64,000 bases of DNA from a virus. Lineage: Duplodnaviria > Caudoviricetes. This document shows, piece by piece, positions 7,861-41,722 of this stretch (position 1 is its first letter; every line of letters starts with the position of its first letter). The DNA is taken from IMG/VR virus record IMGVR_UViG_3300025909_000005; one strand, 5' to 3'. Both the position numbers and the translations under genes were made by a program. The notes under the pieces were generated by a model, which made no database searches, had not been told where the DNA came from, and saw only the letters and a list, made by a program, of their open reading frames with translations.

Positions 7861-7891
7861 GTGCAGCCGTACCTCCAGAAAGGAAACACCC

Positions 7892-15671: not shown

Positions 15672-15672
15672 A

Positions 15673-15846
15673 ATGGGCGTGTTCCTCGTCATCTGTGCTC
15701 TCCTCTGCCTAGGCGTAATTGCCTGGGCAATTCAGAGCGATGACGTGAGCAGCGACGGTGCTTGTGCAATTGCCTTCATCTTCGCCATAGCCGCGTTGGC
15801 CCTGCTCATCATGGCAGGGATCAACATCAACGGCGTTCGCCCATAA
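15673..15846 (+). CDS. Small 2-TM membrane protein (57 aa) inside the prkA operon
   Basis: MGVFLVICALLCLGVIAWAI...AIAFIFAIAALALLIMAG. Confidence 0.5.
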   Translation: MGVFLVICALLCLGVIAWAIQSDDVSSDGACAIAFIFAIAALALLIMAGININGVRP

Positions 15847-15855
15847 GGAGGGTCC

Positions 15856-25098: not shown

Positions 25099-26754
25099 TT
25101 AGTTCTTCTCCGCGAGCTGCGCCTTTAGAGACTCAACTTCAGCACGCAGTTCCTTGATCGCTTCGACCATCAGGCCGGCAAGGTTGCCGTATGCGAGTGA
25201 GAGCAGGCCGTTCTCATTCTCTTGGACAGCTTCTGGAAGAACGGCTTGAACATCTTGAGCAATGAGACCAGTGCCAGCACGACCATCGTCCTTGCGCGTG
25301 TACGTGACGCCATTCAGCGCGTCAACCTTGTCAAGCGCGTTCGTGATTAGAACGATGTTTTCCTTGAGGTTGCGGTCAGAGTAGGCAGTGACGTTGCCCG
25401 TTGCAGTAAGGTTGCCAGCAGAATCGAGACTTAGGGCGGTGGCGTCACTAACGTTGTGCCATTCGAAAGTCGAGTCTGTTCCGAAGACCGTGCTGCCGCC
25501 TGAATTGAAACGCAGGCGATTAGCGCCATCAGAAGATGTCTGCCACGTGTCAACTGTGCCGTAGATGATGGTTGGCTTGCCAGTGACACCAGTCCAAGGA
25601 ACAGAGGCAGCAGAAGCTACAGCGAAGTTCGCTGGGTTCCAGACCTGCATCGTGACGCCGTCGCCGTTGTTACCCCAGACCCAGGCAGGAGTGCCGCCGT
25701 TTCCAGAGTAGCTAAACGTCATGGCGGTGCCGTTGCCGCCCGCTTGTGCAAGCGTCGACGCCTTCGCTGCGAGCGTAGCTGAGTTGGCGCTGTTGGCTGT
25801 TGTTGCCGCTGCAACCGTGAAGTTCAACGGGTTGTACATCGTGGCGACGGTAGAACCAGAGTTCGCAAGACCCCAAACGACGCCAGGCTGGCCGCTATTG
25901 GTGGAGTTGTTGAAGCCGAGCTGTGTGCCGCCGGTCGTCTGACCGCTGCGGATCCAGAGTGCGTTGACCGACTCGGTAGCGTTCGTTGCTGAGTTTGCGG
26001 TGTTGGCGCTGACTGCAGAACCGTTGATGTTGATTGGCCAAGTGGTGCCGAAGTCGGTGCTGTCGACTTGAACGCGGAGCTGACTCGTGCCAGACCAACC
26101 GACGTAGATCTTGTTCGTGAGCTGGCTAGTGCCGCCGCCCTGCTGAACAGGCATGAATGGAAGTTGACCAGTTGTCAGCTGACCCGTCTGGTTCGCGAGG
26201 GTCAGGTAGTACGTTCCATCGCGACCATCAAGCAGGTCAGCATCAAGGCCAGAACCTGAGCCGTCGTTGTTCGCTGCCCAAACCGTGTTGCCAAGCCAGC
26301 GGAGGCCAGTTGTAGAGGATGGGTCGATCGAGAGACCAGTCGTGAGCGAGCCGCCGTTGCCAGTCCAGGTCGAACCCGTACCAATCGTTGCGACGCCGTT
26401 GTTGCCGTCAAAGATGACAGGCTTGTTGACACCACCGGAATCCTGGTTGCCAATAACGAGACGCTGGTTGCCAGACGTAGCAGTGATGCGGAGGAAGCTT
26501 GGCACTTCCAGCTGGCCGAGCATCGTGTCGCCCGCCTTCGCGACGTAGACGCCAGGAGATTGGATCAGGTTCCAGGTCTGAGAAACTTGGTCGCCAAAGG
26601 CAAGAGAATTGGAATCCTGGTTGAAGCCAAACTGATACAGACCTTGACCTGTTCCAGTCGTCAGGTAGAACAGCTCACCATCCGAAGCGGTGGAAGTTGC
26701 TGGGAGAGCGGGACCATAAGGAATGATCGAGCCGCCCGTGAGATTTTTGTTCAT
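25099..26754 (-). CDS. Tail fibre protein with S74 chaperone
   Basis: GNVTAYSDRNLKEN; GLIAQDV...LAYGNLAGLMVEAIKEL; GSGLDADLLDG repeat; late TAAATA at 26787-26792 (minus strand). Confidence 0.88.
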   Translation of the reverse strand: MNKNLTGGSIIPYGPALPATSTASDGELFYLTTGTGQGLYQFGFNQDSNSLAFGDQVSQTWNLIQSPGVYVAKAGDTMLGQLEVPSFLRITATSGNQRLVIGNQDSGGVNKPVIFDGNNGVATIGTGSTWTGNGGSLTTGLSIDPSSTTGLRWLGNTVWAANNDGSGSGLDADLLDGRDGTYYLTLANQTGQLTTGQLPFMPVQQGGGTSQLTNKIYVGWSGTSQLRVQVDSTDFGTTWPININGSAVSANTANSATNATESVNALWIRSGQTTGGTQLGFNNSTNSGQPGVVWGLANSGSTVATMYNPLNFTVAAATTANSANSATLAAKASTLAQAGGNGTAMTFSYSGNGGTPAWVWGNNGDGVTMQVWNPANFAVASAASVPWTGVTGKPTIIYGTVDTWQTSSDGANRLRFNSGGSTVFGTDSTFEWHNVSDATALSLDSAGNLTATGNVTAYSDRNLKENIVLITNALDKVDALNGVTYTRKDDGRAGTGLIAQDVQAVLPEAVQENENGLLSLAYGNLAGLMVEAIKELRAEVESLKAQLAEKN

Positions 26755-26848
26755 GTGTTTGTCCTGGACAGGGATGCTTACGGACCTATTTATGGGTTCG
26801 AGACAAGAACGTTGGATGTTACAATTGTTCATTCAAGTAGGAGCGCAC

Positions 26849-27859
26849 ATGACACAAGAACAAACCGGATTCCTCAATCACGACTTCCGCACCGCCCTGT
26901 TTCAGCTGGTGGAATACGGAACAACCTCGGCACCTCGCGGCTCCGAGACGAAGGAGATCCTGAACTACAACATCACCCTTCGTAGCCCACGTAACCGCGT
27001 CATTACCTTTCCAGAACGCAAGACAAGCACGAAGTACCTACTCGGGGAGCTGTGCTGGTACCTTGGTGGTGACAACACTATCGAGGGCATTCTCCCGTAC
27101 TCCAAGTTCTGGACGAACATCGTGAACTCGGGCGAGTACGATGGCTACCCGAAGGACACGATCAATTCGAACTACGGCAACCGTCTCTTCGGCCACGCAC
27201 ACATCGATGCCTTCGCCGATCGTGAAGGCCCGTTCAACCAGTGGACTGAAACCATCTCGCTGCTGCGTCGAGACAAGGACACACGTCAGGCGATCATGAA
27301 CATCCACGTTCCAGGTGACCGTCACTTCGGCAACAAGGACGTGCCTTGCACGTTGACCCTGCAGTGGTTCATTCGCGAGAACAAGCTTCACCTCGTCGTC
27401 AACATGCGCTCGAACGACATCATCCGTGGCTTCACGAACGACGTCTTCCAGTTCACGATGCTCCAGGAAATCATGCTCGTGAACCTTCGCGAGTATTACC
27501 CAGACCTCGAGCTCGGCCACTACTACCACAACGCGGGCTCGATGCACCTCTACGACCTGCACTACGAGATGGCCGACAAGATCATCGCAAACCCGACCGC
27601 GTATGACCTCGAGATGATCCCGATGGATCGCTTCGATACAGAGATTCAAGAGGCGCTCCTCGGTGTCGAACGCGTCTGGCGCGAACACGGCTTCCCAGAA
27701 GACGCGATGGACGCTGAAGAACCGGAAGACTTCGATCACGATGCCTTCCACGCACACTACAGCAAGCTGACCCCGTACTGGCAGACCCTCGTGAAGGCGA
27801 TGTTCTTCAAGGACGAGGAAGCCATGCACGCAATGTTTGGACAGGAACACGACGAATGA
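26849..27859 (+). CDS. Thymidylate-synthase-fold enzyme of dCMP hydroxymethylase type
   Basis: TRQAI, catalytic VPCT, MRSNDIIRGFTNDV (Asp where ThyA has Asn), AGSMHLY; a canonical ThyA is encoded separately. Confidence 0.75.
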   Translation: MTQEQTGFLNHDFRTALFQLVEYGTTSAPRGSETKEILNYNITLRSPRNRVITFPERKTSTKYLLGELCWYLGGDNTIEGILPYSKFWTNIVNSGEYDGYPKDTINSNYGNRLFGHAHIDAFADREGPFNQWTETISLLRRDKDTRQAIMNIHVPGDRHFGNKDVPCTLTLQWFIRENKLHLVVNMRSNDIIRGFTNDVFQFTMLQEIMLVNLREYYPDLELGHYYHNAGSMHLYDLHYEMADKIIANPTAYDLEMIPMDRFDTEIQEALLGVERVWREHGFPEDAMDAEEPEDFDHDAFHAHYSKLTPYWQTLVKAMFFKDEEAMHAMFGQEHDE

Positions 27860-28833
27860 CCGCTACGATTGAAGCTCCTACACTAGAAATCAAGACACGA
27901 GCTCTACCTCCAAAGGTATCGACTGTCTCCAAGATCTGGGTAGAGAAGTATCGGCCTAAGCACGTCAAGGACGTCATTGTCAAGGATGACCGTGATCGTG
28001 CTGCCTTCGATCACTACGTTTCAACAGGTGAAATCCCGAACCTGCTCCTCTCCGGTGGGCCAGGAACGGGCAAGACCTCGATGTCTCTCGCTCTCGTACG
28101 TGATCTCGAAGTTGACCCAAGCGACGTGCTGAAGATCAACTGCTCGGACGAGAAGATCGATGCCATGCGGGACAAGGTGAAGAACTTCGCGAACACCATG
28201 GCGATGGGCAAGTTCAAGGTCGTGCGCCTTGAGGAGTTCGACTACCTTGGCCACGACGCGCAGGCCCTGCTTCGCGACCTCATCGAGTCGACTGAGCGGA
28301 ACTGCCGATACATCGCGACCTGCAACTACATCAACAAGATCACGCCAGCTCTGCGTTCCCGGTTCCAGGACTACACGTTCGCGAACCCCAGCGTGACTGA
28401 GGTTGCCATCAAGGTGGCAGACATCCTCGACGCAGAGAAGGTGAAGTTCGAGATCGAGGACCTTGACAAGCTCATCACAGCCGGCATGCCCGACTTTCGT
28501 CGCATCATCCAGTTGGCACAGAAGAACTCGATCGGCGGCAGGCTCGTCCTCGATGGTGGTGGCGCAACCCATGACTGGAAGCTAGAGCTCCTGCCAATGA
28601 TCGAAGCAGGCAACATTTCCGCGTGTCGCAAGCTCGTGTGCGAAACTGCTGGGAAGGAGGAGCTCGTCGACGTCTTCCGCTTCATGTACCAGAACATTCA
28701 CCGCGCGAAGAAGCTGAATCAAGACGAGGCAGTGGTCATCATCGCCAAGTACCAATTCCAACACGCCTTCGTTCAGCTCATGGATCCTGAGCTCAACATC
28801 GCTGCAATGTTCGCCGAACTGAGTCTTTTATGA
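27856..28833 (+). CDS. Clamp loader ATPase subunit (T4 gp44 / RFC-like)
   Basis: WVEKYRPK, LLLSGGPGTGKTS, KVVRLEEFDYL, AQALLR, ATCNY, ALRSR. Confidence 0.92.
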   Translation: MTATIEAPTLEIKTRALPPKVSTVSKIWVEKYRPKHVKDVIVKDDRDRAAFDHYVSTGEIPNLLLSGGPGTGKTSMSLALVRDLEVDPSDVLKINCSDEKIDAMRDKVKNFANTMAMGKFKVVRLEEFDYLGHDAQALLRDLIESTERNCRYIATCNYINKITPALRSRFQDYTFANPSVTEVAIKVADILDAEKVKFEIEDLDKLITAGMPDFRRIIQLAQKNSIGGRLVLDGGGATHDWKLELLPMIEAGNISACRKLVCETAGKEELVDVFRFMYQNIHRAKKLNQDEAVVIIAKYQFQHAFVQLMDPELNIAAMFAELSLL

Positions 28834-29294
28834 GCCTAACAATCCTCTCCTACTGGAACGATGAGAAGGAGTGCAACGTCTACGGCGTCCGCGGAATGGG
28901 CGATGACTACAACGCCTTCTACAAGTCGCTGTACACGCAGTCCGAACCTTCACGTTCAGCCCCTCGAGTCACAAAGCAAGTCTACCGCTCCATGTGGTCG
29001 AAGGACGACTTCCCATGGGACTACATCTGGTTCTACGACACAGAGGATGAACTCAGGTTCCTGGAGTGTTACAATAGCATCATTGAGCACGAAGACTCGC
29101 GCTCGCCCCGGCCACCCAAGGTACAACCTGAGGGATTCACGTGGTGCGGCCGCTGCCATACTTTCCACGAGAATCAACCGCCGTGGCATGAGGTGGAGAA
29201 GCAAATCATAGATAGGCTGGCGGAAGAGATCACCAAGGAAATCGATGCAGAGATCCTTGCTGAGCTGTTGGCCATCTCGAAGAAACAAGAATGA
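28830..29294 (+). CDS. Hypothetical protein
   Basis: 154 aa; C-terminal RLAEEITKEIDAEILAEL helix. Confidence 0.65.
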   Translation: MSLTILSYWNDEKECNVYGVRGMGDDYNAFYKSLYTQSEPSRSAPRVTKQVYRSMWSKDDFPWDYIWFYDTEDELRFLECYNSIIEHEDSRSPRPPKVQPEGFTWCGRCHTFHENQPPWHEVEKQIIDRLAEEITKEIDAEILAELLAISKKQE

Positions 29295-31036
29295 GATACG
29301 AAAAGCAGATCCTCGAAGCCTACAAGCGGATTGAGTTTACGCCTCGCCCTGGCCAGGTGGAAGCCATCGATCAGATCATCATCGCGATGCTTGACGAAGG
29401 CTACAAGAACATCATCCTGTCCGCTCCAACCGGCACGGGTAAGTCTATCATTGCCGCAATTGTGGCTGACGTTGTCCATGAGATCAAGCACCCAGGCCAG
29501 AACGCAGGTGCGAGCTTCCTCCTGACCGCCACAAACGTGCTGGCTCACCAGTACCACGACACCTTCATCGATGACGAGTCGCCTGACGACGACCTGTTCC
29601 ACATCATCAAGGGTGCCGGCAACTACGCGTGTGAGGCCCTTTCCACTGCCGAGGAGCCGCAGAACGCCGAGTCCTGCTCGATCATCATGTTCCGCAAGCA
29701 GGCGATGGACTCGCTCATCAACACCTACTGTGACCGCTGCGAGTTCCAGCGCGCTCGCTCGAAGAAGACCTTCGCACGCCACCTCATCACGAACTACTCG
29801 TGGTACTTCCTCGACCGCATGTATTCGACGAAGCCAATGGAGAAGCGTACTGTCTGCGTCTTTGATGAGGCGCACCTGCTGAACGACCTCTTCGTTGAGC
29901 ACAACGCCATCTTCTTCTCGGAGAAGCGGTTGATTGGGTTCGCAGAAGAGGTGAGTGAGCACCTGAAGGTGAGCCACACGGAAATCTTCAAGAACCTGAA
30001 GATGCTGCGTGAGCACCTTACGGCAGGCAAGATCACCGACCAGAACTACAAGAAGTACCTGCACATCCTGCTGCAGACGTACAAGGACATCTCTGATGCA
30101 GCCTCGAAGGAAGCGGATCGAAACGTCCACAACCACAAGAGGTATCTTGACCTGAGCCGTCTGTCGAAGAAGTTCTTCAACCTCGGCTGCAAGATCGACG
30201 ACCTGGAGATCTTTGAGTACCCGCACGTGTTCGAGTACAAGGAGAAGGACAAGGCAAAGTTCCAGAACGACCACGAGGTTTCGGTGAAGCCAATCTTCGT
30301 GGGTGAGATGTTCGAGGCGCTCGACAACGCAGACCACAACCTGCTCATGTCAGCCACCATCTCCGACCTCTGGGCCAAGCGGACCATGTCCCTGCCTGGC
30401 ACAACGAAGTTCATCAAGCTGCCACCTCAGTTCCCGCCTGAGAACAAGAAGGTCATCTTCTACAAGGCGCAGAACCTGAACTACAACACGATGAAGGACC
30501 CCCAAGTCGTGAAGAAGCTGGCGGCCACCTGCTACGAGATTGTCAAGCACCACACCGACAAGGGAGAGCGTGGCATCATCCTCGCGCCATCCTTCGTCAT
30601 CCTCCAGTCAGTGGCATCGGCTCTTCGTGTGATGAACCCGAAGTACCGTATCTTTGAACAGGAACGGGGACAGAAGCTGGCTGAGGTGCTTGAGCAGTTC
30701 AAGGCGTACAAGGGCCCGGCAGTTATCCTCACGCCTTCTGGCTTTGAGGGCATTGACTTGCCAGGCGACCTCTCAAGGTTCCAGATTCTGTGCAAGGCGC
30801 CGTTCGGTTCGCTTGGCGACAAGCGCGTCGCCCACATCCTGAACGTCTACCCTGACATCTACTCCCTCACGACTCTCATGAAGGTGACTCAGGGCGCAGG
30901 TCGATCGGTCCGTTCAGCTGAGGACTGGGCTACCACGTACTGCCTCGACATGGGTATTCAGCGACTGTGGTCGAAGAACAACGCATGGGCCGATGAATTC
31001 TCTACGTCCTACACTTCACAGTTGGCAGACGACTGA
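29291..31036 (+). CDS. SF2 helicase, DinG/YoaA-like
   Basis: PRPGQ, SAPTGTGKS, Cys cluster, FDEAH, MSAT, EGIDLPGD, KAPF, QGAGRSVRS. Confidence 0.88.
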   Translation: MRYEKQILEAYKRIEFTPRPGQVEAIDQIIIAMLDEGYKNIILSAPTGTGKSIIAAIVADVVHEIKHPGQNAGASFLLTATNVLAHQYHDTFIDDESPDDDLFHIIKGAGNYACEALSTAEEPQNAESCSIIMFRKQAMDSLINTYCDRCEFQRARSKKTFARHLITNYSWYFLDRMYSTKPMEKRTVCVFDEAHLLNDLFVEHNAIFFSEKRLIGFAEEVSEHLKVSHTEIFKNLKMLREHLTAGKITDQNYKKYLHILLQTYKDISDAASKEADRNVHNHKRYLDLSRLSKKFFNLGCKIDDLEIFEYPHVFEYKEKDKAKFQNDHEVSVKPIFVGEMFEALDNADHNLLMSATISDLWAKRTMSLPGTTKFIKLPPQFPPENKKVIFYKAQNLNYNTMKDPQVVKKLAATCYEIVKHHTDKGERGIILAPSFVILQSVASALRVMNPKYRIFEQERGQKLAEVLEQFKAYKGPAVILTPSGFEGIDLPGDLSRFQILCKAPFGSLGDKRVAHILNVYPDIYSLTTLMKVTQGAGRSVRSAEDWATTYCLDMGIQRLWSKNNAWADEFSTSYTSQLADD

Positions 31037-31053
31037 GTGTGTAAAATGACTAC

Positions 31054-32454
31054 ATGGCATTCCACTCAGATGAAGACCCTCGTACAGAGAAGGAACGTGC
31101 CTCACGACTCAAGCAGTTTCGAAAGCAGTTAGCCGATCAGTGGAATCGAGAACACTTCAGGGCCAGCTACAAGTACGCTCCTGAGGACGTCGATTTCTTT
31201 GACGTTCAGATGTTTGAGCGAGAGCTGCTTGACAACATCTTTCTTTGGTACGATCCAATGGCCCACCGTGGCGCAACCCAAAAGAACGGGCTTACCCGTG
31301 AAACGAATCGACTTATCAAGAAGCTTGGCATGACAGCAGCTCCAAGACCACGGCGTGGTCGACAGAACCACACCAAGGCTCGTCGGTACATGCCCAACTC
31401 CTACCCCAAGTACGCAAACACCTCTATGAACGACCTCCCAATCTTCGGCCCTCGCGACCTTCCTGAATCTGAGGTTCTCCTCGGCGTGTATGGCTCTGAG
31501 GACTGGATCGGCGCAGACTCAGCACGGTACCGCCACCTGACGGGCCAGCCGACGGTTCAGCGTGACGTCACCTGGATCGTACCGGCGACGTTCGACCTGG
31601 CCGATTGGGTCGAGGCGAACACGAAGATGTTCACGTTCTTCGGTGCCAACCGCTGCATCGTGCAGGAGGAAGACGGCATGATGAAGCTGTCGTCTGGTCG
31701 TGGGAAGCTGGAGGTCGAGGTCATCGGCGGTCCGCAGTGGGTTCGAGGCCACGTTGAGAAGTTCGACAGCGAGTTTAGCCGTGCCGAAAACCTGATCGAG
31801 TGGGTCTACAGCGAACGGGGTGACACGATCTCCGTGCCACTGAACTTCCGTCCCGCCATCAAGGCCGCGTATCCATGGATCGACATGGATCTGAACGACT
31901 ACATCGACCAGTACCTGGACTCCCAGGCCTCTGTGCTGATCCTCATCGGTAAGCCTGGAACCGGCAAGACGACCTTCATCAAGAACCTCATCCACCGTTC
32001 CGGCGCCGACGCCAAGGTGGCGTACGACGAGAAGGTCATGATGGGCGACGGCCTCTTTGCTGGCTTCATCGACGACGAGTCCCGCTTCCTGATCATGGAA
32101 GATGCTGACGCGTTCCTGCAGTCCCGCACGGATGGCAACACGATGATGCACAAGTTCCTGAACGTCTCTGACGGCCTCATCTCCGCGGCAGACAAGAAGC
32201 TGGTGTTCTCCACCAACCTCGACAAGGTCACCGACATCGACGAAGCTCTCATGCGTCCGGGTCGCTGCTTCGACGTCATCGAGTTCCGCGAGCTCACGAT
32301 CGATGAGGCGAAGGCCGTCATTGCTGAGACCGGTTCTGGCAAGCTGCCTACCGACAAGGACGGCAACGTCAAGAAGAAGATCACCCTTGCCGAGATCTTC
32401 TCCGTGCAACCCAGCGAAGGCAAGGTCAAGAAGGCAAGGCTTGGATTCGTATGA
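31054..32454 (+). CDS. AAA+ ATPase (start uncertain)
   Basis: GKPGTGKTT, LIMEDAD, FLNVSDG, FSTN, DEALMRPGRCFD. Confidence 0.85.
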   Translation: MAFHSDEDPRTEKERASRLKQFRKQLADQWNREHFRASYKYAPEDVDFFDVQMFERELLDNIFLWYDPMAHRGATQKNGLTRETNRLIKKLGMTAAPRPRRGRQNHTKARRYMPNSYPKYANTSMNDLPIFGPRDLPESEVLLGVYGSEDWIGADSARYRHLTGQPTVQRDVTWIVPATFDLADWVEANTKMFTFFGANRCIVQEEDGMMKLSSGRGKLEVEVIGGPQWVRGHVEKFDSEFSRAENLIEWVYSERGDTISVPLNFRPAIKAAYPWIDMDLNDYIDQYLDSQASVLILIGKPGTGKTTFIKNLIHRSGADAKVAYDEKVMMGDGLFAGFIDDESRFLIMEDADAFLQSRTDGNTMMHKFLNVSDGLISAADKKLVFSTNLDKVTDIDEALMRPGRCFDVIEFRELTIDEAKAVIAETGSGKLPTDKDGNVKKKITLAEIFSVQPSEGKVKKARLGFV

Positions 32455-32747
32455 AGATCACCACCCGTCCTGAGAGCGCCATTCACGGGAAGGGCGCCTA
32501 CACGGTTCGCATGACGTACCACCAGCTCGAGCTCATCGCAGCGCTGGTGAATTCAATCCGTCTTGGGCAACACGGCAGCGTCTACAAGCGCGCGGCCTAC
32601 GACCTCCATGGTCTCTTCGATGATGTTTTCGATCAGACTTTTATGGACGACGCCGTTCAAAATGTTGATATAGTGATGTCAGTCGTAGATGACCTCTGCG
32701 AACCCATCGAACAATTCTCTGTTAGCGAGTTCGCAATCGAAGTATGA
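32451..32747 (+). CDS. Hypothetical protein
   Basis: Coupled ORF. Confidence 0.6.
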   Translation: MKITTRPESAIHGKGAYTVRMTYHQLELIAALVNSIRLGQHGSVYKRAAYDLHGLFDDVFDQTFMDDAVQNVDIVMSVVDDLCEPIEQFSVSEFAIEV

Positions 32748-33292
32748 AATCAGTCTACGCAATCGAAGGACTTGACCGTCTCGGCAAGTCGACCCTCATT
32801 CGCGGCATCATGGATCGCGGTGGTTTCTACCAGACGATCCACTTCAGCAAGCCTGAAAAGCTGGCTGTCTACGAGCAAGCGAAGGACAAGAGCCCTCTCC
32901 AGCTCTACCAGGAGCAGAGCTTCCGCAACTCGATGCTGCTCGCCCGTTCCGGTGCGCGGATCATCTTCGATCGCTGGCACCTCGGCGAAGCTGTCTATGC
33001 CCCACTCTACCGTGGCTATGATGGTGACTACGTCTTCAAGCAGGAGAAGATGTTCGCGATGGACGAAGTCCACTCGATTCGCCTCATCCTCCTCGTTGAA
33101 AACTTCAACTACTCGAAGCACTTCGTCTCTGATGGCGACAGCTTCGATGACACGAAGCGGAAGGCTGAGCAGGAACTTTTCTTCGATGCCATGGCAAAGT
33201 CGATCATTCCGGATCGTCGGATCGTGTGCGTTACGGCTGAGGATGGTGGCTTCCGACGCAAGGAAGACATCCTTGAGGAAGCGCTGTCGTGA
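32744..33292 (+). CDS. dNMP kinase (thymidylate-kinase-like P-loop)
   Basis: AIEGLDRLGKST, IIFDRWHLGEAVY. Confidence 0.8.
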   Translation: MKSVYAIEGLDRLGKSTLIRGIMDRGGFYQTIHFSKPEKLAVYEQAKDKSPLQLYQEQSFRNSMLLARSGARIIFDRWHLGEAVYAPLYRGYDGDYVFKQEKMFAMDEVHSIRLILLVENFNYSKHFVSDGDSFDDTKRKAEQELFFDAMAKSIIPDRRIVCVTAEDGGFRRKEDILEEALS

Positions 33293-33735
33293 GCAACATC
33301 GTCATCACCTTCAAGATTGGAAATCCTGTAGAGCAGGATCTCGTGCGCAACTCGTTCAACATCGTAGTGCGCCACATGCACGGCGACATGAACGGCTACA
33401 GCAGCGAGACGCGCTACTACTCGATGCAAGAAGAAGGTGCTGAAGGTGCTGTTGAGCGGGCAAAGCGCGCCGCCTACGTTCTCATGAAGCTGCGCGATCA
33501 TCCAGGCCTGTGGGGCATGCACGAGGACACCCTCTTTCCGATAGTGAAGAAGTATGCCAAGGAAATTGGCATGAAGGGTAAGGAGCTGAAGCAGTTCTTC
33601 GATGACTTCATTCAGCCAGATGACACAGATGACTCGTACGAAGCGTACGCGCTCATCGAAAGCGTAGCCGTCTATTGGTACGACGCCTACGGTCAGCAGC
33701 ACCACGTTTCAACAACTTTCACCCAAACTTTATGA
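33289..33735 (+). CDS. Hypothetical protein
   Basis: Coupled ORF, GTG start. Confidence 0.65.
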   Translation: MSNIVITFKIGNPVEQDLVRNSFNIVVRHMHGDMNGYSSETRYYSMQEEGAEGAVERAKRAAYVLMKLRDHPGLWGMHEDTLFPIVKKYAKEIGMKGKELKQFFDDFIQPDDTDDSYEAYALIESVAVYWYDAYGQQHHVSTTFTQTL

Positions 33736-34106
33736 TCAAACTTGCCATTGGCGCTCCTCTGAAGGAAGTCGCATGCCACAACGTCTACAAGCTCGTCGTC
33801 GAGTTCATGCACGGTGATGCCGACGCCTACACGAAGACCGAGTACTTCTACAGTGAAGATCGGCTCGACGAGCTGACAAAGGACGTTGCCATGCTTGAGC
33901 TGTGCGAGGGCTGGAACTGGGAAGACAGGCTCGATGAATTCGCAGAGCAGGTCGGTCTGTCGAGCGATGAGCTTGAGACGTGGGAAGATAAATTTCGTGA
34001 GTGCGACGCGACGAATGACTGCAACTCGCTGGCCTCGCCTAGCGTCAGCGAGCTCACCTACTTTGGGGATGAAGGCACGGAGTACAGCGTGGACATCATC
34101 AAGTAA
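33732..34106 (+). CDS. Hypothetical acidic protein
   Basis: ATGA overlap; start placed at 33732. Confidence 0.65.
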   Translation: MIKLAIGAPLKEVACHNVYKLVVEFMHGDADAYTKTEYFYSEDRLDELTKDVAMLELCEGWNWEDRLDEFAEQVGLSSDELETWEDKFRECDATNDCNSLASPSVSELTYFGDEGTEYSVDIIK

Positions 34107-34321
34107 TGAAGGTCGTCGCGATCTCAACCCCTGAGGAGGCGCGGGAGCGCCTCATTTCAGCTCGTGACATGGGCTACGTGACGTTCATCTACGATCACGT
34201 GGACCCAAAGCACGAGCTTCTAGAGGAAAGCTTCCTGTACGTCAGCTCAGATGATGAGCTCAAGGAAAAGCTTCACCTCCTCAAGATGGACATCAGCACA
34301 GTCGACCTGTTACGGTGGTAA
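34106..34321 (+). CDS. Hypothetical protein
   Basis: TAATG coupling. Confidence 0.6.
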   Translation: MKVVAISTPEEARERLISARDMGYVTFIYDHVDPKHELLEESFLYVSSDDELKEKLHLLKMDISTVDLLRW

Positions 34322-34354
34322 CATCTTGGGGTCACTGTGTACTAAAATACGAAT

Positions 34355-34777
34355 ATGGCATACAATAACCCCACCCCTGTTGCAGTCGCTGTCATGTTTG
34401 TCGGCGATGCCCTTGAAGAGGCTCGTCTTCTTACTGTCTGCCGCAAACTAGCCCCTGTTGGTGGCTGGGCCCTGCCTGGTGGCTTCGTCGATGAAGGTGA
34501 AACTGCTGAGCGGGCGATCCAGCGAGAGGTTCTTGAGGAGTGCGGCATTCGCACGGATATCAGTCTCTGGGTGCCGATTCAGACGGAGATTACGCCGCGC
34601 AATCAGCTCCTTGTCTTCATGGAATACCTCGCACCTCTCGACGAGAATGTGTTGAGCAACTTCAATGAAAATGACGAGGTCTCTGCTCTCGGCACGTTCA
34701 ATGGTAGCACCACGCTATGCTTCCCACTGCATGACAAAGTGGCTCGTGCTGCTGTCAATTCTTTCCAAACCGCATGA
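34355..34777 (+). CDS. NUDIX hydrolase (ADP-ribose pyrophosphatase-like)
   Basis: YNNPTPVAV start; WALPGGFVDEGETAERAIQREVLEECG. Confidence 0.85.
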   Translation: MAYNNPTPVAVAVMFVGDALEEARLLTVCRKLAPVGGWALPGGFVDEGETAERAIQREVLEECGIRTDISLWVPIQTEITPRNQLLVFMEYLAPLDENVLSNFNENDEVSALGTFNGSTTLCFPLHDKVARAAVNSFQTA

Positions 34778-35301
34778 CCGCATCCACGTTCGGCGCCGCC
34801 TTTGACAAGCTGAGTCACGAGACTCAGCGTCAGTTCATCCACAACCTGAACATGAGGCGTGGCCACTACGCTGGCCTCATGGGCGGGTGTTCGACTCTCG
34901 AGTGGATCAGCCAAGTCAAGGCGGTCATTCTTGGCGACACGCCCGGCCCTGGACGTCCGAAAGACCCGAACTACCACCACACTCCCTTCTACAGCACGAA
35001 GAACTCCAGTCTCTGGATGAATGCCCAGCTCGTAGAAGCCGGCATTGACGAGCGTCGGCTTGCCTGGTTCAACACTACCCTCGCTGATGGCACCCTACTC
35101 GAGCAAGGGAAGGTGACGCAGTTCCTGCCGTTCAATCCGAAGATCATCGTGTTGGGCGGCAATGCCGAGAAGTGGGTGCGATGCGTCGCACCTACACCGG
35201 TCTACACGAAGGTGTTTCACCCAGCTTTTGCGAAGCGGTTCCATTCCAAGGAACCGTACGCGCTCATCAACGAACTTCTCTTTATCAAGGAACTGCAGTG
35301 A
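34774..35301 (+). CDS. Uracil-DNA glycosylase-superfamily-like protein
   Basis: ILGDTPG...PF...WFNT...IIVLGGNA...FHPAF motif order. Confidence 0.55.
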   Translation: MTASTFGAAFDKLSHETQRQFIHNLNMRRGHYAGLMGGCSTLEWISQVKAVILGDTPGPGRPKDPNYHHTPFYSTKNSSLWMNAQLVEAGIDERRLAWFNTTLADGTLLEQGKVTQFLPFNPKIIVLGGNAEKWVRCVAPTPVYTKVFHPAFAKRFHSKEPYALINELLFIKELQ

Positions 35302-35453
35302 TTGCTCTTCTCATGTTTCTTTTCGGTCTGCTCCTCCTTGGAGTTGCCACTCGCATCGTGCCATCGAAGGAGATACTCTTCGTCGGTGGACTGCTGATCA
35401 TCCTCTCACCAGCTGTGTTGATCATCAACCTTCTTCACTCCTGAAAGACCGTC

Positions 35454-35927
35454 ATGACTTGTAAGTGTGGGAACTACACTCGTTTCCTGAGCCTCGGCGG
35501 CAAGTGCAGTGACATGTGCTATACGAGGGTGCCTCACCTGAAGTACGAGAATGATGGCTACGCGCCGCCCATTCCAGGTCTGGGCGGCGGCGACTACATC
35601 GAACTTAAAGTCTGCCTCAACTGCGGTCTCTTGCAGGGCTTCAAGGCGCCGTTCTCCGACGAAGACCTGAAGGTCGCGCTCGACATCGAAGAGGACGAGG
35701 AAGAACCAGACGACAACCTCGTAGAGCTCATCGAGGCGATTGCAGCGATCGACATGCTCCGCTGGACTGGTCAAGATGTTGCCATGGTTATCAGGCAGGT
35801 CTACACCGATTTTCATGACAAGCGCCGCATCGACCTGCTAGAACACTTCCTTGGTGCCAACCTCTGGTACAAGCAAGAAATTCTCCAAGAGCTGAATGAT
35901 CGGCTCGACCTACAAAATGGCGAATGA
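35454..35927 (+). CDS. Hypothetical protein with Cys motifs (possible Zn ribbon)
   Basis: CKCG...GKCSDMC...CLNCG. Confidence 0.65.
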   Translation: MTCKCGNYTRFLSLGGKCSDMCYTRVPHLKYENDGYAPPIPGLGGGDYIELKVCLNCGLLQGFKAPFSDEDLKVALDIEEDEEEPDDNLVELIEAIAAIDMLRWTGQDVAMVIRQVYTDFHDKRRIDLLEHFLGANLWYKQEILQELNDRLDLQNGE

Positions 35928-35976
35928 CCCGGGCAAACTCGGGTATAATCGACCATCAACTAAAGAAAGGCGCATC

Positions 35977-36162
35977 ATGCGTAGCGTATCACTTCTCGGC
36001 CTGCTCTGGCTGGTTCTCTGGATTGCCGGCATCATCGGCTGGGTCCTGAACATCATCGACATCTTCCACATGGCGCACCCGCTTGACAGCGGCTTCGGCA
36101 TCCTGCGGATCGTCGGCATCTTCGTCGCACCGCTCGGCTCAATCCTCGGTCTGTTCTTCTGA
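35977..36162 (+). CDS. Small 2-TM membrane protein
   Basis: SD aaagg; hydrophobic. Confidence 0.65.
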   Translation: MRSVSLLGLLWLVLWIAGIIGWVLNIIDIFHMAHPLDSGFGILRIVGIFVAPLGSILGLFF

Positions 36163-36163
36163 C

Positions 36164-36841
36164 GTGAAGTTCCCTGACGAGTTCCGGCTGGTCACACCAG
36201 CGAAGCACTACTTCGACGATCCAGCATACCCTGAAGCTGTCGAGTACGTTGCCGCGCGGAACGAACTCTTTGATCGCATGGTGAATGGCACGCTCTACGT
36301 GAAGTTCATCGCTGGTGACCGCAAGGGCTCGATCGCGCGGATGGTGCGTGACACGCGCTATGATAAAGATGGCGATGAATACGTGCAGCCACGTGCCTCA
36401 ATCAAGGCGCGGCGTCGTTACTGGAATGATCCAGATGAGTACGAAATCGACTGGTCATGGTTCAGTGGCATCTGCAAGTGGGACAAGCGCAAGAACAGCT
36501 GTCAACTCACGATGCCTGACGCAGATGCAGTCTTCCTGCCGAATTACAACGGACCGACCATCTACGAGATGTTTGACCGAAAGGCGGCAAAGGAAGAGCT
36601 GCTGAAGAACCCAGACCAGACGGACATCGATGGCAACGTGCTGGCGATCGGCGACAAGGTGCTGTACATCAACGCGCGGTACTACGCGGGCATGGAGCTC
36701 TGTCACGGTACTATCCAGGAGTTCAAGGTCACAGCAGACTCGAAGGGACACTCATTCACCACAGTCGTGAAGAATGACGAAGCTGACGAGGTGTCATCCA
36801 TCTCGTACCCGTGGCAAATGATCTACAAGAAAGCAACATGA
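36164..36841 (+). CDS. Hypothetical protein
   Basis: GTG start; coupled to the next gene. Confidence 0.65.
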   Translation: MKFPDEFRLVTPAKHYFDDPAYPEAVEYVAARNELFDRMVNGTLYVKFIAGDRKGSIARMVRDTRYDKDGDEYVQPRASIKARRRYWNDPDEYEIDWSWFSGICKWDKRKNSCQLTMPDADAVFLPNYNGPTIYEMFDRKAAKEELLKNPDQTDIDGNVLAIGDKVLYINARYYAGMELCHGTIQEFKVTADSKGHSFTTVVKNDEADEVSSISYPWQMIYKKAT

Positions 36842-38040
36842 AAATCCTGATTACGGGCTTCAACAAGAACCAGTGCACGCGAAAGTTCTACCTTCGTCAG
36901 CAGCTGAAGGTCGTGCCTTCGCACTACTCGCTGTTCAACTGCCTCGTCGACATGGGTCACGAGGTCGAGCAGCGCCAGGTAACGCTCGGTGAAGACCTGA
37001 GTGGCTACGACGAGATCATCGTCTTCATCGCGGGGCCACGCCAGCTGGTTGCCACGACGGTCTACGAGGGGCTGTGGGCCATTTCGCAGAAGCCGGGCTG
37101 CATCCTCGCTTTCGACGACTGGCAGGTTCCTGACCTCTTCAAGGGTGTGGCAAAGTGCGACCAGAAGCCTGACGAGCTCTTCGCTCAGTTCATTCTCGAT
37201 GTCAACAAGAAGACCCTCGAGGATGTCAAGCCGTACGAGCAGCAGTTCATGCAGGCGATCAGCGTGATCACCGCGAAGCAGAACCGCATGCTCATCAGCG
37301 CGTTCCAAACCGGCCATGTGTCGGGCGACGTGCATGGACCTGAGCTGCTCTTCGACAAGATCACGTATCCAAGTGATCGTCTCTTCGTCTACAACCCGAA
37401 CCCGTACCACCGCAACCGCATGTGGAACGATGAGGCCCATGAAGGATCAGAAGACCCGACCTGGAAGCCATCGTCGCTGAGCTACACCGCTCGCCCACGT
37501 CCTCCGAAGGAGGAGCGCTTCAACTTCGCCAGTCTCGTGCAGTCGAAGACACAGAAGTGGCTCAAGAAGCAGGGCTACACGGGCAACCCGAAGAACGACG
37601 AGGAAGGTGTGATCCGCGGCAATGGTCGGTACCCTTCTGCAGGTCCCAACACGACACCATTCTGGCCCGTCGACCTCTACGGCTCCAAAGCAGAGACGCA
37701 GAAGCGGCTCACCGAGGACGAAATGGTTGGCGTCATCACCCGCGACTGGGGCTGCCTCATGCCTGGCTACGAACACGCTGGCTCTGGCTGGTGGCGTGCT
37801 CGGCCGCTGCAGTGTGCTGATGCTGACTCGATCCTGATCGGTGAGGATCGTGAGCTGCGCGTCTACTACGGCGACGACTACAAGTACTTCGGTCTTGTCG
37901 CAGCGGACCTGGTTGACATGTCTCCTCAAGACCTTCACGACTGCGCCATTCACCAGAAGATCCAGCTTTACAAGTACCATCCACTCGACAAACTTCGTCA
38001 GGTGAATGAGCTTCAGACGGTTCTGGACGCGCCAAAGTGA
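36838..38040 (+). CDS. GT-B glycosyltransferase resembling T4 DNA beta-glucosyltransferase (BGT)
   Basis: MKILITG..., VVPSHYSLFNCLVDMGHEV, YDEIIVF, LAFDDWQVP, WWRARPLQCADADSILIG parallel BGT segments (TVPSSETIYLFKVISEMGLNV, YDRLIVV, LFTDIRLP, TLRVWETMASDAVMLID) as I recall them. Confidence 0.55.
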   Translation: MKILITGFNKNQCTRKFYLRQQLKVVPSHYSLFNCLVDMGHEVEQRQVTLGEDLSGYDEIIVFIAGPRQLVATTVYEGLWAISQKPGCILAFDDWQVPDLFKGVAKCDQKPDELFAQFILDVNKKTLEDVKPYEQQFMQAISVITAKQNRMLISAFQTGHVSGDVHGPELLFDKITYPSDRLFVYNPNPYHRNRMWNDEAHEGSEDPTWKPSSLSYTARPRPPKEERFNFASLVQSKTQKWLKKQGYTGNPKNDEEGVIRGNGRYPSAGPNTTPFWPVDLYGSKAETQKRLTEDEMVGVITRDWGCLMPGYEHAGSGWWRARPLQCADADSILIGEDRELRVYYGDDYKYFGLVAADLVDMSPQDLHDCAIHQKIQLYKYHPLDKLRQVNELQTVLDAPK

Positions 38041-38052
38041 TACAATGGTAGC

Positions 38053-38424
38053 ATGATCGACCTAAACCTCTACCCTCCGAAAGAAGCCCAAGTGGGCGTC
38101 TATGATGGCCACTCCTACGGCGCCAAAGGCCTCCTCGACATTCACGTCGATGAGGACTCCAATGGTGTCTTCGAGGGCTCCCGCTTCAACGGTGAGATCA
38201 TCCACCTGAAGGATGGCGACGAGGAGGTCGGCACGTTCTGTGTCGGCTACCTGAGTGTCGGCCCTGGCACGTTCTGGGTCGAGGTGCCGGTCGAGGCATG
38301 CAGCATCTACAACGAAGAACAACATGACCCAACCTACCAAGCGAAGCTTTGGTTGGCGTCAGAAGAGGGAAAAGAATGGCTGAAACAACACCCACTACCG
38401 AGGCTTCCAGGGGATCCGAAGTAA
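38053..38424 (+). CDS. Hypothetical protein
   Basis: 123 aa; TACAAT upstream. Confidence 0.65.
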   Translation: MIDLNLYPPKEAQVGVYDGHSYGAKGLLDIHVDEDSNGVFEGSRFNGEIIHLKDGDEEVGTFCVGYLSVGPGTFWVEVPVEACSIYNEEQHDPTYQAKLWLASEEGKEWLKQHPLPRLPGDPK

Positions 38425-39719
38425 GGAAGAAGGCCCTTGTCGTCGGCGCTGGCTTTGCTGGCGCCGTTGTCGCTAGAGAGCTCGCAGATACAGGTGACTG
38501 GGACGTACTCGTCATCGATGCACGCAATCACGTTGCGGGCAACGCCTTTGACTACGTGAACGAGCTGGGCATTCGCGTGCACAAGTACGGTCCCCATCTC
38601 TGGCATGGAAACTCGGACATCGCGCAGGAATGGGCGTCGCGTTTCACAGAGTGGGTTCCGTACAAGCACTACGTGACAGCTCAGCTGCCTGATGGCCAGC
38701 ACGTGCCGCTGCCAATCAACGCGAAGACGATCATGGAGGTCTTCGGCCAAGAGTTTCACAACTTCGCCATGTCGAAGCCTGAGTACTGGGCCTACCAAGA
38801 CGAGGACATTGCTGACGGCATCGGCTACCTTCCGCTCGCCTTCGAGGCGTTCATGGAGCAGCAGCGGGTCAAGTACGAGGCCGTGACAAACTCCCGTGAG
38901 CACGTCGAGTCATCGGTTGGCAAGCGACTGTGCGAGTTGTTCTTCGCGCCGTACACCAAGAAGATGTGGGGCATGGATCTCGCTGACCTTCCAACGTCGG
39001 TAGCGGCCCGCATCCCAACGAAGACCGACTCGGACAAGTACTACTTTCCGAAGGACAAGTACCAGTTCATTCCGAAGGACGGCTACACCGCACTGATCAC
39101 GAAGGCACTTGACCACCCGAACATCACGGTGAAGCTCTGCACGAAGCGCCAAGAGCTCATGCAGTACGCAGGAAGCTATGAGTACCCCTACGTTATTTCG
39201 ACGGGGTGGGACAACGTCAAGTTCGACGCCGTGTTCACGTCAGAGCCCATCGACACGTACTACAACTGCGACCTTGGTGAGCTGCCTTGGCGCTCCATCA
39301 AGTGCCACACGTACAACGTGCCAGTGCCGAAGCTACTCGACGCACCAGTGGTCAACTTCACGCACGACGGTCCACACACGCGTGCTACCGAGTGGAAGCA
39401 GATTCCAGGCCACGATTTTCCTGACTACGCGCGAGATGAATACAGCTCGAGCAAGTACTGGACGACCATCACTGTTGAAGAGCCGTGTGATTACCGCGAC
39501 AACAACATGGAGCGGTACTACCCAGTCAAGACGTCGCATGTCATTGACCCCAATCGTGAACTCTACAAGCAGTACCGTGACCGTGCCAAGAAGGACGGCA
39601 TTCACTTCATCGGCCGCTGTGGTCGCTACGTGTACACGGACATGATGCCCTGCATCAACTCGACCCTCGCTCAGGTCGGTCGTTTCTTGTCGGGTGATAC
39701 AATACCATCAGAGGACTGA
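38376..39719 (+). CDS. glf: UDP-galactopyranose mutase
   Basis: VVGAGFAGAVVA FAD motif, HVAGNAFD, VHKYGPHLWH, PYTKKMWG, RYYP, FIGRCGRYVYTDM; SD gaggg before ATG 38376. Confidence 0.9.
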   Translation: MAETTPTTEASRGSEVRKKALVVGAGFAGAVVARELADTGDWDVLVIDARNHVAGNAFDYVNELGIRVHKYGPHLWHGNSDIAQEWASRFTEWVPYKHYVTAQLPDGQHVPLPINAKTIMEVFGQEFHNFAMSKPEYWAYQDEDIADGIGYLPLAFEAFMEQQRVKYEAVTNSREHVESSVGKRLCELFFAPYTKKMWGMDLADLPTSVAARIPTKTDSDKYYFPKDKYQFIPKDGYTALITKALDHPNITVKLCTKRQELMQYAGSYEYPYVISTGWDNVKFDAVFTSEPIDTYYNCDLGELPWRSIKCHTYNVPVPKLLDAPVVNFTHDGPHTRATEWKQIPGHDFPDYARDEYSSSKYWTTITVEEPCDYRDNNMERYYPVKTSHVIDPNRELYKQYRDRAKKDGIHFIGRCGRYVYTDMMPCINSTLAQVGRFLSGDTIPSED

Positions 39720-40503: not shown

Positions 40504-41004
40504 TTGAGAAGAGGTACCGTGAACGAACAGCCTACCAACAACGAGCCTTCAGAAAAGAGTACCCTCCCCTCTTCGGAGAGAAGCGAAAGCTCCGCTCGGC
40601 CCCAAAGAAGGTCAAGAGGTTCTATCGCTGGCAGACCAGTCTCTGGCGATATCGACAGGCCTTTGCCGAGTCCAGAAGAAATCGCCTGGCGGAACAGGGT
40701 TGAAGAGGATCGCTGGGCACTCTACCAAGAGCGGCCCTACGTTGATGTGGTAGCGCGTGCCAAGCTTCGAGTCCAGCACGAGGAGTGGCTAGGCAAGCCT
40801 GTCCCTGAGTTCACCGTCATTCACACAGAAGAATACACCGCAATCGAGAGTCACTCTCACGACGATGACCTCTGGCTTCGGCTGTCAGGAAATTTTCTGC
40901 CCGACCGCCGGCTCATGATCGCAACAGAAATCTGCGACCAGCTCAATCGCATTGAGCAACAGGACCTAGAAGCAGCCCTAATCAGGAAGAAGAATGCAAT
41001 TTGA
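40504..41004 (+). CDS. Hypothetical protein (start uncertain; overlaps basic ORF 40344-40703)
   Basis: C-terminal half looks globular and abuts the kinase gene. Confidence 0.45.
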   Translation: MRRGTVNEQPTNNEPSEKSTLPSSERSESSARPQRRSRGSIAGRPVSGDIDRPLPSPEEIAWRNRVEEDRWALYQERPYVDVVARAKLRVQHEEWLGKPVPEFTVIHTEEYTAIESHSHDDDLWLRLSGNFLPDRRLMIATEICDQLNRIEQQDLEAALIRKKNAI

Positions 41005-41722
41005 CAAACCCACTCTCATCACCCTCACAGCACCAACTTGTTCAGGCAAGTCGTTCCTGCTCGAGTACCTGACAGATCAGGTCACCCCATACCGTCGCAC
41101 CGTCGTGAAGGGGTTGTGCGAGCGAATCGTCAGCACCACAACTCGAAAGTCACGAGAAGGTGAAGAGGAAGGTAAGGACTACTACTTCATCAGCGAAGAG
41201 GAGTCGATTCGCATGGAGCAGGACGGGCTGTTCGCTGAGCTCATCACGTTCCGAGGCACCCGCTACGGCGTCACAAAGGTCGAGATGGCCAAGAAGATGG
41301 CCAGCGACCGTCCGCCAATCGTGATCCTTGAGCCGCAAGGTCTGAAGATCTACGAGAAGCTCTGTCAGGAGAATGGTTGGGGCATCTACAAGGTGTTCGT
41401 CAGCACGTCTGAGCCAGTGCGAATTCAGCGCCTGAATCACCGAACCTCTCTCGACATGCAGGACGTCATTCGTCGACGCCATGAGTTCCAAGGGGACGAG
41501 CTCTTCGAAGCGATCAAGAAGGTCATCTCAACGCACACGAACCGCATGGAGTCGATCATGGGTGAAGAGCGGCGCTGGCAGGGCATGAGCGTCTGGGATG
41601 CCATTATCACGGGTGAGGACCGCATGAAGGCGATCGCTGACCTCAAGCAGGGCATCGCATGGCGGAACCAGCGCACCAAGAATCCAACTCCTTTCAATGG
41701 GTACTTCAATGACATTGCTTGA
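40994..41722 (+). CDS. Guanylate kinase-like nucleoside monophosphate kinase
   Basis: TAPTCSGKS P-loop; IVSTTTRKSREGEEEGKDYYF; RYG. Confidence 0.85.
   Translation: MQFDKPTLITLTAPTCSGKSFLLEYLTDQVTPYRRTVVKGLCERIVSTTTRKSREGEEEGKDYYFISEEESIRMEQDGLFAELITFRGTRYGVTKVEMAKKMASDRPPIVILEPQGLKIYEKLCQENGWGIYKVFVSTSEPVRIQRLNHRTSLDMQDVIRRRHEFQGDELFEAIKKVISTHTNRMESIMGEERRWQGMSVWDAIITGEDRMKAIADLKQGIAWRNQRTKNPTPFNGYFNDIA

Follow-up and report, generated by a model that had tools for sequence, protein, structure and literature searches.

A block of genes at positions 26,849 to 39,719 of a 64,000-nucleotide stretch of viral DNA (IMG/VR record IMGVR_UViG_3300025909_000005, Caudoviricetes; the whole stretch is referred to here as the window) probably encodes a T-even-style pathway of cytosine replacement and glycosylation with a new sugar, galactofuranose (Galf) on 5-hydroxymethylcytosine (5hmC). 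This reading rests on observed protein folds, residue signatures and gene associations; what the enzymes do, which sugar is attached and in which anomeric form, how far cytosine is replaced and whether the genome is protected are inferred from these. To our knowledge, galactofuranose has never been demonstrated on DNA. A first-pass annotation had picked out a second thymidylate synthase (TS)-fold enzyme, a deoxynucleoside monophosphate (dNMP) kinase, a glycosyltransferase resembling the T4 β-glucosyltransferase (BGT) and, two genes downstream of the latter, glf, which encodes a uridine diphosphate (UDP)-galactopyranose mutase (UGM). It placed them in one co-directional block and suggested that the DNA carries Galf- or arabinofuranose (Araf)-modified hydroxymethyl- or hydroxycytosine. 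All four genes do lie on the + strand (Table 1), and the assignments hold up, with some narrowing of the proposed product.

The TS paralog matches PF00303 (E 5.5e-21) and contains KDVPCT followed by MRSNDIIRGFTNDV. Its open reading frame (ORF) spans 26723-27859, and the start at 26849 is that of a 99%-identical database protein. The best solved relatives are the MilA CMP hydroxymethylase (E 1.3e-26) and the T4 dCMP hydroxymethylase gp42 (E 7.6e-14); thymidylate synthases follow at E 1e-10 or worse, and the protein scores far under every NCBIfam ThyA cut-off. In alignments, its VPC and GELCW motifs fall on the catalytic residues of ThyA and gp42 (Cys146 and Glu58, in E. coli ThyA numbering), and the whole active-site signature, E58, R126, D143, C146, S167, D169 and N177D, is the same as in T4 gp42. 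Exchange of Asn177 for Asp is the cytosine-specifying change in the TS fold. The paralog has GFTND where T4 has GFRND and ThyA has LPFN, which confirms the Asp-for-Asn exchange that had been noticed at the outset. The contrast also holds within the window, since its own ThyA contains RSVD and then GLPFNI, with Asn where the paralog has Asp. At the positions that distinguish ribose from deoxyribose, the paralog carries MRSND and DKDTRQ against MRAND and DPDSKR in MilA, that is, Ser167 and Arg126 in place of Ala and Lys. MilA prefers CMP, and its A176S/K133R mutant switches to dCMP (PMC5175136). By these residues, the TS paralog is predicted to be specific for cytosine and for deoxyribose.

Two further positions bear on the group that is added to the base. 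Position 143 is Asp in the paralog (KDVPC), as in T4 gp42 (SDFMC) and MilA (NIDVAC), and Leu in ThyA (ALPPC); Asp at this position is correlated with a product that is hydroxymethylated, not methylated (PMC13326640). Position 169 separates hydroxymethylases from the enzymes that make 5-hydroxy-dCMP, as a D169N exchange is common to all phage TS homologs shown to form the latter (Lee et al. 2026, PMC13326640). In our alignment, the validated 5-hydroxy-dCMP synthases RB69 gp48 and RL38J1 gp216 have Glu143 together with Asn169 (MRSQN). The motif is MRSND in the window enzyme and in each of eight homologs from the database. Because position 169 is Asp and not Asn, the predicted base is 5hmC rather than 5-hydroxycytosine, and the predicted product of the TS paralog is 5-hydroxymethyl-dCMP. 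Of the two bases originally put forward, only the hydroxymethyl form is thus retained.

The transferase, a protein of 400 residues whose true start is the ATG at 36838, has no Pfam match and falls in PHROG 14998. Its family has 671 database matches, many of them on contigs of 100–360 kb that also encode the TS paralog. An AlphaFold2 model was built from 69 sequences (predicted local distance difference test (pLDDT) 87.3, predicted template modelling (TM) score 0.88). When this model was compared with the PDB by Foldseek, ranks 1–4 were all T4 BGT entries (E 5.9e-7, TM 0.54/0.59), and VIA-align against representative structures likewise placed BGT (1c3j) at the top, with Z 17.1 and a root-mean-square deviation of 3.7 Å over 291 aligned residues. 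Two independent aligners therefore agree on a two-Rossmann-domain GT-B fold closest to BGT, in line with the resemblance first proposed. D94-W95 and a GSGWWRxR motif are invariant in 44/44 diverse homologs. D94 follows strand 89-92, just past the fourth strand, where ILAFDDW would correspond to YLFTDIR of BGT, which holds the catalytic Asp100. BLASTP of the transferase against RL38J1 gp215 and gp237, RB69 gp46 and gp47, and the T4 α-glucosyltransferase (AGT) gave no match. We regard the protein as BGT-like in fold and not as a proven BGT homolog; transfer of sugar to hmC in DNA is its predicted activity, supported from gene context.

The mutase is assigned with strong domain matches (PF03275, E 4.6e-46; PF13450, NAD_binding_8, E 2.5e-14) and has a VVGAGFAG motif, so that a GLF domain and a Rossmann fold for binding flavin adenine dinucleotide are both present. 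Translation probably begins at the ATG at 38376, which a GAGGG ribosome-binding site precedes. In comparison with the Deinococcus radiodurans UGM (E 1.4e-60), most of the substrate-binding Arg, Tyr, Trp and Phe residues are retained (FF..Y....W, two Arg and YYP). Galf is a more likely sugar than Araf because phages with Araf make UDP-Araf by a different, Glf-independent pathway, which favors the former of the two furanoses initially suggested. Both the sugar and its anomeric form, as predicted here, depend on the assignment of Glf and on likeness to the inverting mechanism of BGT.

Glf lies two genes downstream of the transferase, as first described, with one 123-aa ORF in between. This ORF was rejected as a conserved third component, since relatives hold unrelated small ORFs or none at that place. 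The gap between transferase and Glf appears as an insertion hot spot in the window and in the related loci L017-L026, with differing, unrelated ORFs of 60–185 aa that are often translationally coupled on both sides. The closest relative, an IMG/VR contig of 350 kb, has immediately behind Glf a gene for a GGDEF diguanylate cyclase with a MASE11 sensor domain (L026:12680-13813; PF00990, E 1.2e-44); no such gene is found at the matching place in the window.

The argument depends chiefly on the association of these genes across phages. A scan of IMG/VR with a transferase profile returned 53 loci, and in 50 of these the gene that follows on the same strand is Glf; one of the three exceptions stops at a contig edge. 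A TS-family gene lies 1–8 kb upstream in 41 loci, and every one of these 41 genes has the D143/C146/D169/D177 signature. Six of the linked TS genes are of the MilA-like type of the window and 35 are of the T4 gp42 type (47–57% identical to gp42), which is also the type found in the jumbo-clade loci L020-L022 and L024. With both types represented, two hydroxymethylase lineages interchange beside the same transferase–Glf pair. This linkage of genes is far beyond chance, and the co-occurrence across phages that the first-pass annotation named as a check is borne out. In L027-L069, which are IMG/VR contigs, the genes form a compact gp42–transferase–Glf cluster whose transferase is 39–45% identical to that of the window and whose TS gene product is ~50% identical to gp42.

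The adjacent pair is found in cultured phages as well, namely Aeromonas phage 25 and ~18 relatives (Aes508 and phiAS4 are among the Aeromonas carriers), Stenotrophomonas phage IME13, Erwinia phage FBB1 and Actinomycetia phage DSL-LC01, and it is also present in phage C48C1. Phage 25, FBB1 and DSL-LC01 each encode an enzyme with the gp42 signature. C48C1 (OQ984149, Kyanoviridae; L001:10586-14033) has instead a Tet_JBP oxygenase (E 3.3e-17), a transferase homolog and Glf in a row, and no TS-family gene was found in its genome. Tet_JBP oxygenases are the other known route to a 5-hydroxymethyl pyrimidine in DNA. Since no PF00145 cytosine C5-methyltransferase was found in C48C1, we do not claim that the TET/JBP enzyme acts on 5-methylcytosine; its substrate may be thymine, and the locus may specify a galactofuranosyl analogue of base J on thymine. 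The same genome encodes an isocitrate lyase (L001:5178-6419; PF00463, E 4.4e-94) and a di-haem cytochrome c peroxidase (L001:18993-20414; PF03150, E 3.5e-23), both unusual auxiliary metabolic genes.

A distant member of the transferase family (24.6% identity) occurs in Providencia phage PSTRCR_121 (L071:5372-11791), inside an RB69-type cluster with a SIS isomerase, a nucleotidyltransferase, a U32 peptidase and a TS gene with E143/N169. By these signatures, the cluster is of the arabinofuranosyl-5-hydroxycytosine type. No counterpart of the Providencia homolog was found in RB69, T4 or RL38J1. Its presence in an Araf cluster means that the transferase family recurs in DNA-base glycosylation loci, with a furanose as the sugar both times. 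These observations lead to a broader proposal, for and against which we see about equal weight: the transferase would define a widespread, unnamed family of DNA furanosyltransferases that, with Glf, adds galactofuranose to 5hmC. On this view, the pair was joined on three or more occasions to a different source of the hydroxymethyl group (gp42-type enzymes, MilA-like TS enzymes and a TET/JBP oxygenase). Its carriers are soil jumbo phages, an actinophage, many T4-like phages from aquatic habitats, and those cultured phages of Aeromonas and Erwinia that had for long been described as having no glycosyltransferases.

The dNMP kinase foreseen in the block is weak by sequence (PF02223, E 0.002; PHROG 761 'thymidylate kinase', E 1.3e-9), and a sequence search of the PDB gave no match. 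An AlphaFold2 model from nine orthologs (pLDDT 89.1) nevertheless has a thymidylate-kinase fold, with Foldseek matches to the human and Aquifex thymidylate kinases and Bacillus subtilis YorR, including 2xx3, 2pbr, 4s35 and 3kb2 (E 2e-5 to 1e-4). Structures 3kb2 and 4s35 are also those given for DLP3_078, and 4s35 for RB69p045 (Lee et al., PMC13326640), which the kinase weakly matches by BLASTP. Homologs of the kinase (51–62% identity) are upstream of the transferase in 9/9 such loci and between the TS gene and the transferase in at least eight. A possible enzyme for clearance of dCTP, the NUDIX hydrolase of the window, is not kept at this position in relatives, and in the closest relative the matching interval upstream of the transferase holds a weak, sub-threshold MazG-like ORF (E 0.037). 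The 252-aa ORF upstream of the window transferase (36083-36841) was rejected as a MazG-type dCTPase, as it has no Pfam match even at E 10.

In the pathway that we propose, the TS paralog would hydroxymethylate dCMP to 5-hydroxymethyl-dCMP. The thymidylate-kinase-fold kinase, with a host nucleoside diphosphate kinase, would convert this to 5-hydroxymethyl-dCTP for incorporation by the phage polymerase, and the NUDIX enzyme or a similar hydrolase may drain dCTP. Phage Glf would turn host UDP-galactopyranose into UDP-galactofuranose, and after replication the BGT-fold GT-B enzyme would put galactofuranose on the hydroxymethyl group of 5hmC in DNA. If the transferase is inverting like BGT, with D94 as the base, the product would be 5-(beta-D-galactofuranosyloxymethyl)cytosine. 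Such a modification would guard the genome against restriction enzymes, CRISPR nucleases and type IV enzymes that recognize hmC or glucosyl-hmC.

Several observations weigh against Galf on 5hmC. The margin of BGT over other GT-B enzymes is modest, with PimA, SenB, HepE and T4 AGT following at Z 15–16 in VIA-align. Homology to BGT at the level of sequence is not established: BLASTP gives E 0.35, and hhalign reaches a probability of 16–37% (best E 3.5e-4) over the N-terminal ~60 residues only, with no match to T4 AGT. The structural likeness anticipated for 36838-38040 therefore stands for the fold and, in sequence, extends to that N-terminal segment. D94 is a candidate catalytic Asp by its position after strand 4 rather than by residue superposition. 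Two members of the transferase family (L059 and L060) are without Glf. No recognizable dCTPase was found in the window, and in complete relatives, through which genome-wide gene content was judged, searches for gp56-type (PF08761) and MazG (PF03819) proteins gave only sub-threshold MazG-like matches; the gp56-type negative is uninformative because the model barely picks up T4's own gene. Finally, Glf scores 252.8 bits against TIGR00031, below the equivalog cut-off of 303.75, and it has insertions and a His in place of one phosphate-binding Tyr of bacterial UGMs. For these three reasons its substrate could differ from UDP-galactopyranose.

This divergence of Glf is among the grounds for considering that hmC in the DNA is modified with a sugar other than Galf, whether because the mutase acts on another UDP-sugar, such as UDP-arabinopyranose (to give the furanose) or UDP-GalNAc, or because the transferase uses a common pyranose donor. 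Some UGM-family enzymes accept other UDP-sugars, and the distant transferase homolog of PSTRCR_121 sits inside an arabinofuranose cluster. We nonetheless consider another sugar improbable: the protein matches the Pfam GLF domain strongly and retains most of the residues with which UGMs bind substrate, the isomerase, kinase/uridylyltransferase and phosphatase with which Araf phages make UDP-Araf are not beside the pair here, and the near-obligate adjacency of Glf points to its product as the donor. The acceptor can be questioned in a similar way. Superfamily methylases and hydroxymethylases are hard to separate by sequence, and with just ~28–31% identity to T4 gp42, the TS paralog could methylate dCMP in the manner of phage XP-12 or be a C5 transferase of another kind, in which case 5-methylcytosine would offer no hydroxyl for a sugar. 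This seems very unlikely in view of Asp143, shared with gp42 and MilA and replaced by Leu in the methyl-forming ThyA, and of the gp42-type enzymes that stand in beside the same pair in sister loci. A base of the RB69, DLP3 and RL38J1 kind, 5-hydroxycytosine with galactofuranose in a direct ether link, would agree with the sole published phage system that ties Glf to DNA glycosylation, that of the Pootjesviridae. However, position 169 is Asp not only in the window enzyme and its eight database homologs but in all of the 41 linked TS genes, where validated 5-hydroxy-dCMP synthases have Asn, and of the alternatives we give this one the least credence.

Alternatively, Glf and the GT-B enzyme may build a Galf glycan on virion proteins or on the host envelope, with the TS paralog serving an independent purpose. 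GT-B enzymes serve many kinds of acceptor, and the window also encodes a host-like GH1-like/GT4 pair at 288-2638 (+) that would be able to use UDP-Galf and could take part in such a pathway, which is a further point against DNA as the target. Homologs of the GH1-like protein in Burkholderiales (Rhizobacter, Aquabacterium and Roseateles; 45–51% identity) adjoin a GT4 fused to a flavin amine-oxidase-like domain, so bacterial loci do pair a GT4 with a flavoenzyme; the phage GT4 is without this flavoprotein domain. Nevertheless, phage 25, FBB1, C48C1 and RL38J1 all lack the GH1-like/GT4 pair. So do two relatives of 358 kb and 220 kb, estimated to be 100% complete, in which transferase and Glf are both retained; two other relatives have the GH1-like/GT4 pair. 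Because complete relatives keep transferase and Glf on their own, Glf does not depend on the GH1-like/GT4 pair, contrary to the possibility raised in the first-pass annotation that glf serves only a GT4 surface-glycan pathway. Moreover, the transferase–Glf pair has a hydroxymethylase gene as its neighbor in 41 loci and, in C48C1, a gene for a TET/JBP oxygenase, and the best structural match of the transferase is a DNA glucosyltransferase. A surface glycan is thus a doubtful explanation of the pair, and Galf on 5hmC in DNA is the reading that we prefer, although in the window phage UDP-Galf might feed both the transferase and the GH1-like/GT4 pair. The closest cellular homologs of the latter, in Burkholderiales, may hint at the host.

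Table 1. Predicted base-modification genes of the window and related features.
Feature	Position	Strand	Basis
TS-fold paralog, predicted dCMP hydroxymethylase (forming 5-hydroxymethyl-dCMP)	26849..27859	+	PF00303; ORF open from 26723
Thymidylate-kinase-fold P-loop nucleotide kinase, predicted hm-dCMP kinase	32744..33292	+	PHROG 761, AlphaFold2 model
NUDIX hydrolase, possible dCTP-clearing pyrophosphohydrolase (speculative)	34355..34777	+	PF00293 E 5.1e-14
400-aa GT-B glycosyltransferase with T4 BGT-like fold, predicted DNA hmC galactofuranosyltransferase	36838..38040	+	AlphaFold2 model, Foldseek, VIA-align
123-aa ORF, variable slot between transferase and Glf	38053..38424	+	No Pfam or PHROG match
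UDP-galactopyranose mutase Glf, predicted source of UDP-galactofuranose	38376..39719	+	PF03275, NAD_binding_8
Guanylate-kinase-family protein	40994..41722	+	PF00625 E 8.5e-15
Canonical ThyA	52722-53693		PF00303 E 5.5e-88

From ~26.8 kb to 43 kb every gene of the window is on the + strand, and some neighbors overlap by a few bases (for example at 27856-27859). The TS paralog is followed by a clamp-loader-like AAA+ protein, a helicase, a second AAA+ protein, the kinase and small ORFs that include the NUDIX hydrolase, and then by the transferase, the 123-aa ORF, Glf and the guanylate-kinase-like gene. Homologs of this last gene (41–50% identity) lie 1.5–3 kb downstream of Glf in eight jumbo-clade loci. 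Counts of sigma-70-like promoters and terminators between 26 and 44 kb were not above those of shuffled controls, and the T4 late-promoter motif TATAAATA does not occur within the window. The 13.6-kb block had no megablast match among 50,697 phage records, which leaves the phage without a close cultured relative.

Elsewhere in the window, positions 13707-18710 (+) encode a complete PrkA/DUF444/SpoVR triad (PF08298, E 7.7e-149; PF04285, E 1.1e-108; PF04293, E 5.2e-142), which corresponds to the bacterial YeaG-YeaH-YcgB stress-response module, in this case on a phage. A Ro60/TROVE protein with a vWA domain is encoded at 7826-9508 (+; PF25045, E 2.7e-44); at Rfam gathering thresholds, neither Y-RNA nor any other RNA family was recovered in the window, and a search for tRNA genes was negative as well. 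Two large proteins at 19734-22424 (−) and 25099-26832 (−) end in a Peptidase_S74 intramolecular chaperone domain, which is typical of tail fibers or spikes. Their genes break an early-gene region that is otherwise on the + strand, just before the TS paralog.

The sugars on phage DNA decide which restriction, CRISPR and type IV systems can attack it, and they complicate sequencing and engineering. If the prediction is true, galactofuranose on hmC would be a new chemical type beside glucose, gentiobiose and arabinose, and the transferase would be a new enzyme for labeling 5hmC with a sugar that is absent from mammals. Aeromonas phages positive for gene 42 have been reported to be without glucosyltransferase genes (Petrov et al. 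2010), and a Galf coat on hmC, if true, would explain this report. Because cultured phages carry the same gene pair, the prediction is testable in Aeromonas phages 25, Aes508 and phiAS4, Stenotrophomonas phage IME13 and Erwinia phage FBB1, with no need to culture the window phage.

Among known systems, the galactosyl/glucosyl-5-hydroxycytosine pathway of Rhizobium phage RL38J1 shares with the window a phage Glf, an acceptor-making TS-fold enzyme and a thymidylate-kinase-like kinase in the cluster. The initial annotation knew of no galactofuranosyl modification, but for RL38J1 and the Pootjesviridae the phage mutase has already been proposed to make UDP-Galf for the base-proximal galactose on 5-hydroxycytosine (Lee et al. 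2026, PMC13326640). In contrast to the window enzyme, which keeps Asp169, RL38J1 gp216 is D169N and makes 5-hydroxy-dCMP. Furthermore, the RL38J1 transferases gp151, gp215 and gp237 have no BLASTP similarity to that of the window, and RL38J1 Glf is ~60 kb from them, whereas Glf and transferase form a tight, conserved pair here. A full-text search found no literature beyond Lee et al. 2026 that ties galactofuranose, or Aeromonas phages, to hmC.

Among the Straboviridae, RB69, DLP3 and related phages resemble the window phage in placing a furanose on a C5-oxygenated cytosine, and the distant transferase homolog of PSTRCR_121 belongs to such a cluster. The 'nucleotide kinase' genes of the RB69, DLP3 and RL38J1 clusters likewise have a thymidylate-kinase fold. 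In RB69 and DLP3, however, the base is 5-hydroxycytosine, and no mutase is involved in making UDP-Araf, which is derived from ribulose-5-phosphate through the action of an isomerase, a kinase/uridylyltransferase and a phosphatase. Clusters of TET/5mYOX enzymes (Burke et al. 2021, PMC8256090; bioRxiv 10.1101/2023.12.21.572611) generate a 5-hydroxymethyl pyrimidine in DNA that is then glycosylated by BGT-like GT-B enzymes; neither source mentions a mutase or a furanose. C48C1 joins a Tet_JBP oxygenase with the same transferase–Glf pair, while the window phage would make its acceptor at the nucleotide level with a TS-fold enzyme.

The proposed pathway follows the logic of T-even 5hmC glucosylation (gp42, the gp1 kinase, the gp56 dCTPase and the α- and β-glucosyltransferases), in which dCMP receives its hydroxymethyl group from a TS-fold enzyme, a kinase of the phage acts next and a GT-B enzyme glycosylates hmC once the DNA has been replicated. 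The hydroxymethylase active-site signature is the same, and T4 BGT is the best structural match of the window transferase. However, the window hydroxymethylase belongs to a different, MilA-like lineage with ~30% identity to gp42, the kinase has a thymidylate-kinase fold and is not gp1-like, the transferase is without significant full-length sequence similarity to BGT, and a gp56-type dCTPase was not found. The window phage also supplies Glf, and its predicted sugar is galactofuranose, not glucose. New relative to the T-even logic are a mutase that the phage itself supplies, a furanose as the predicted sugar and a separate family of transferases.

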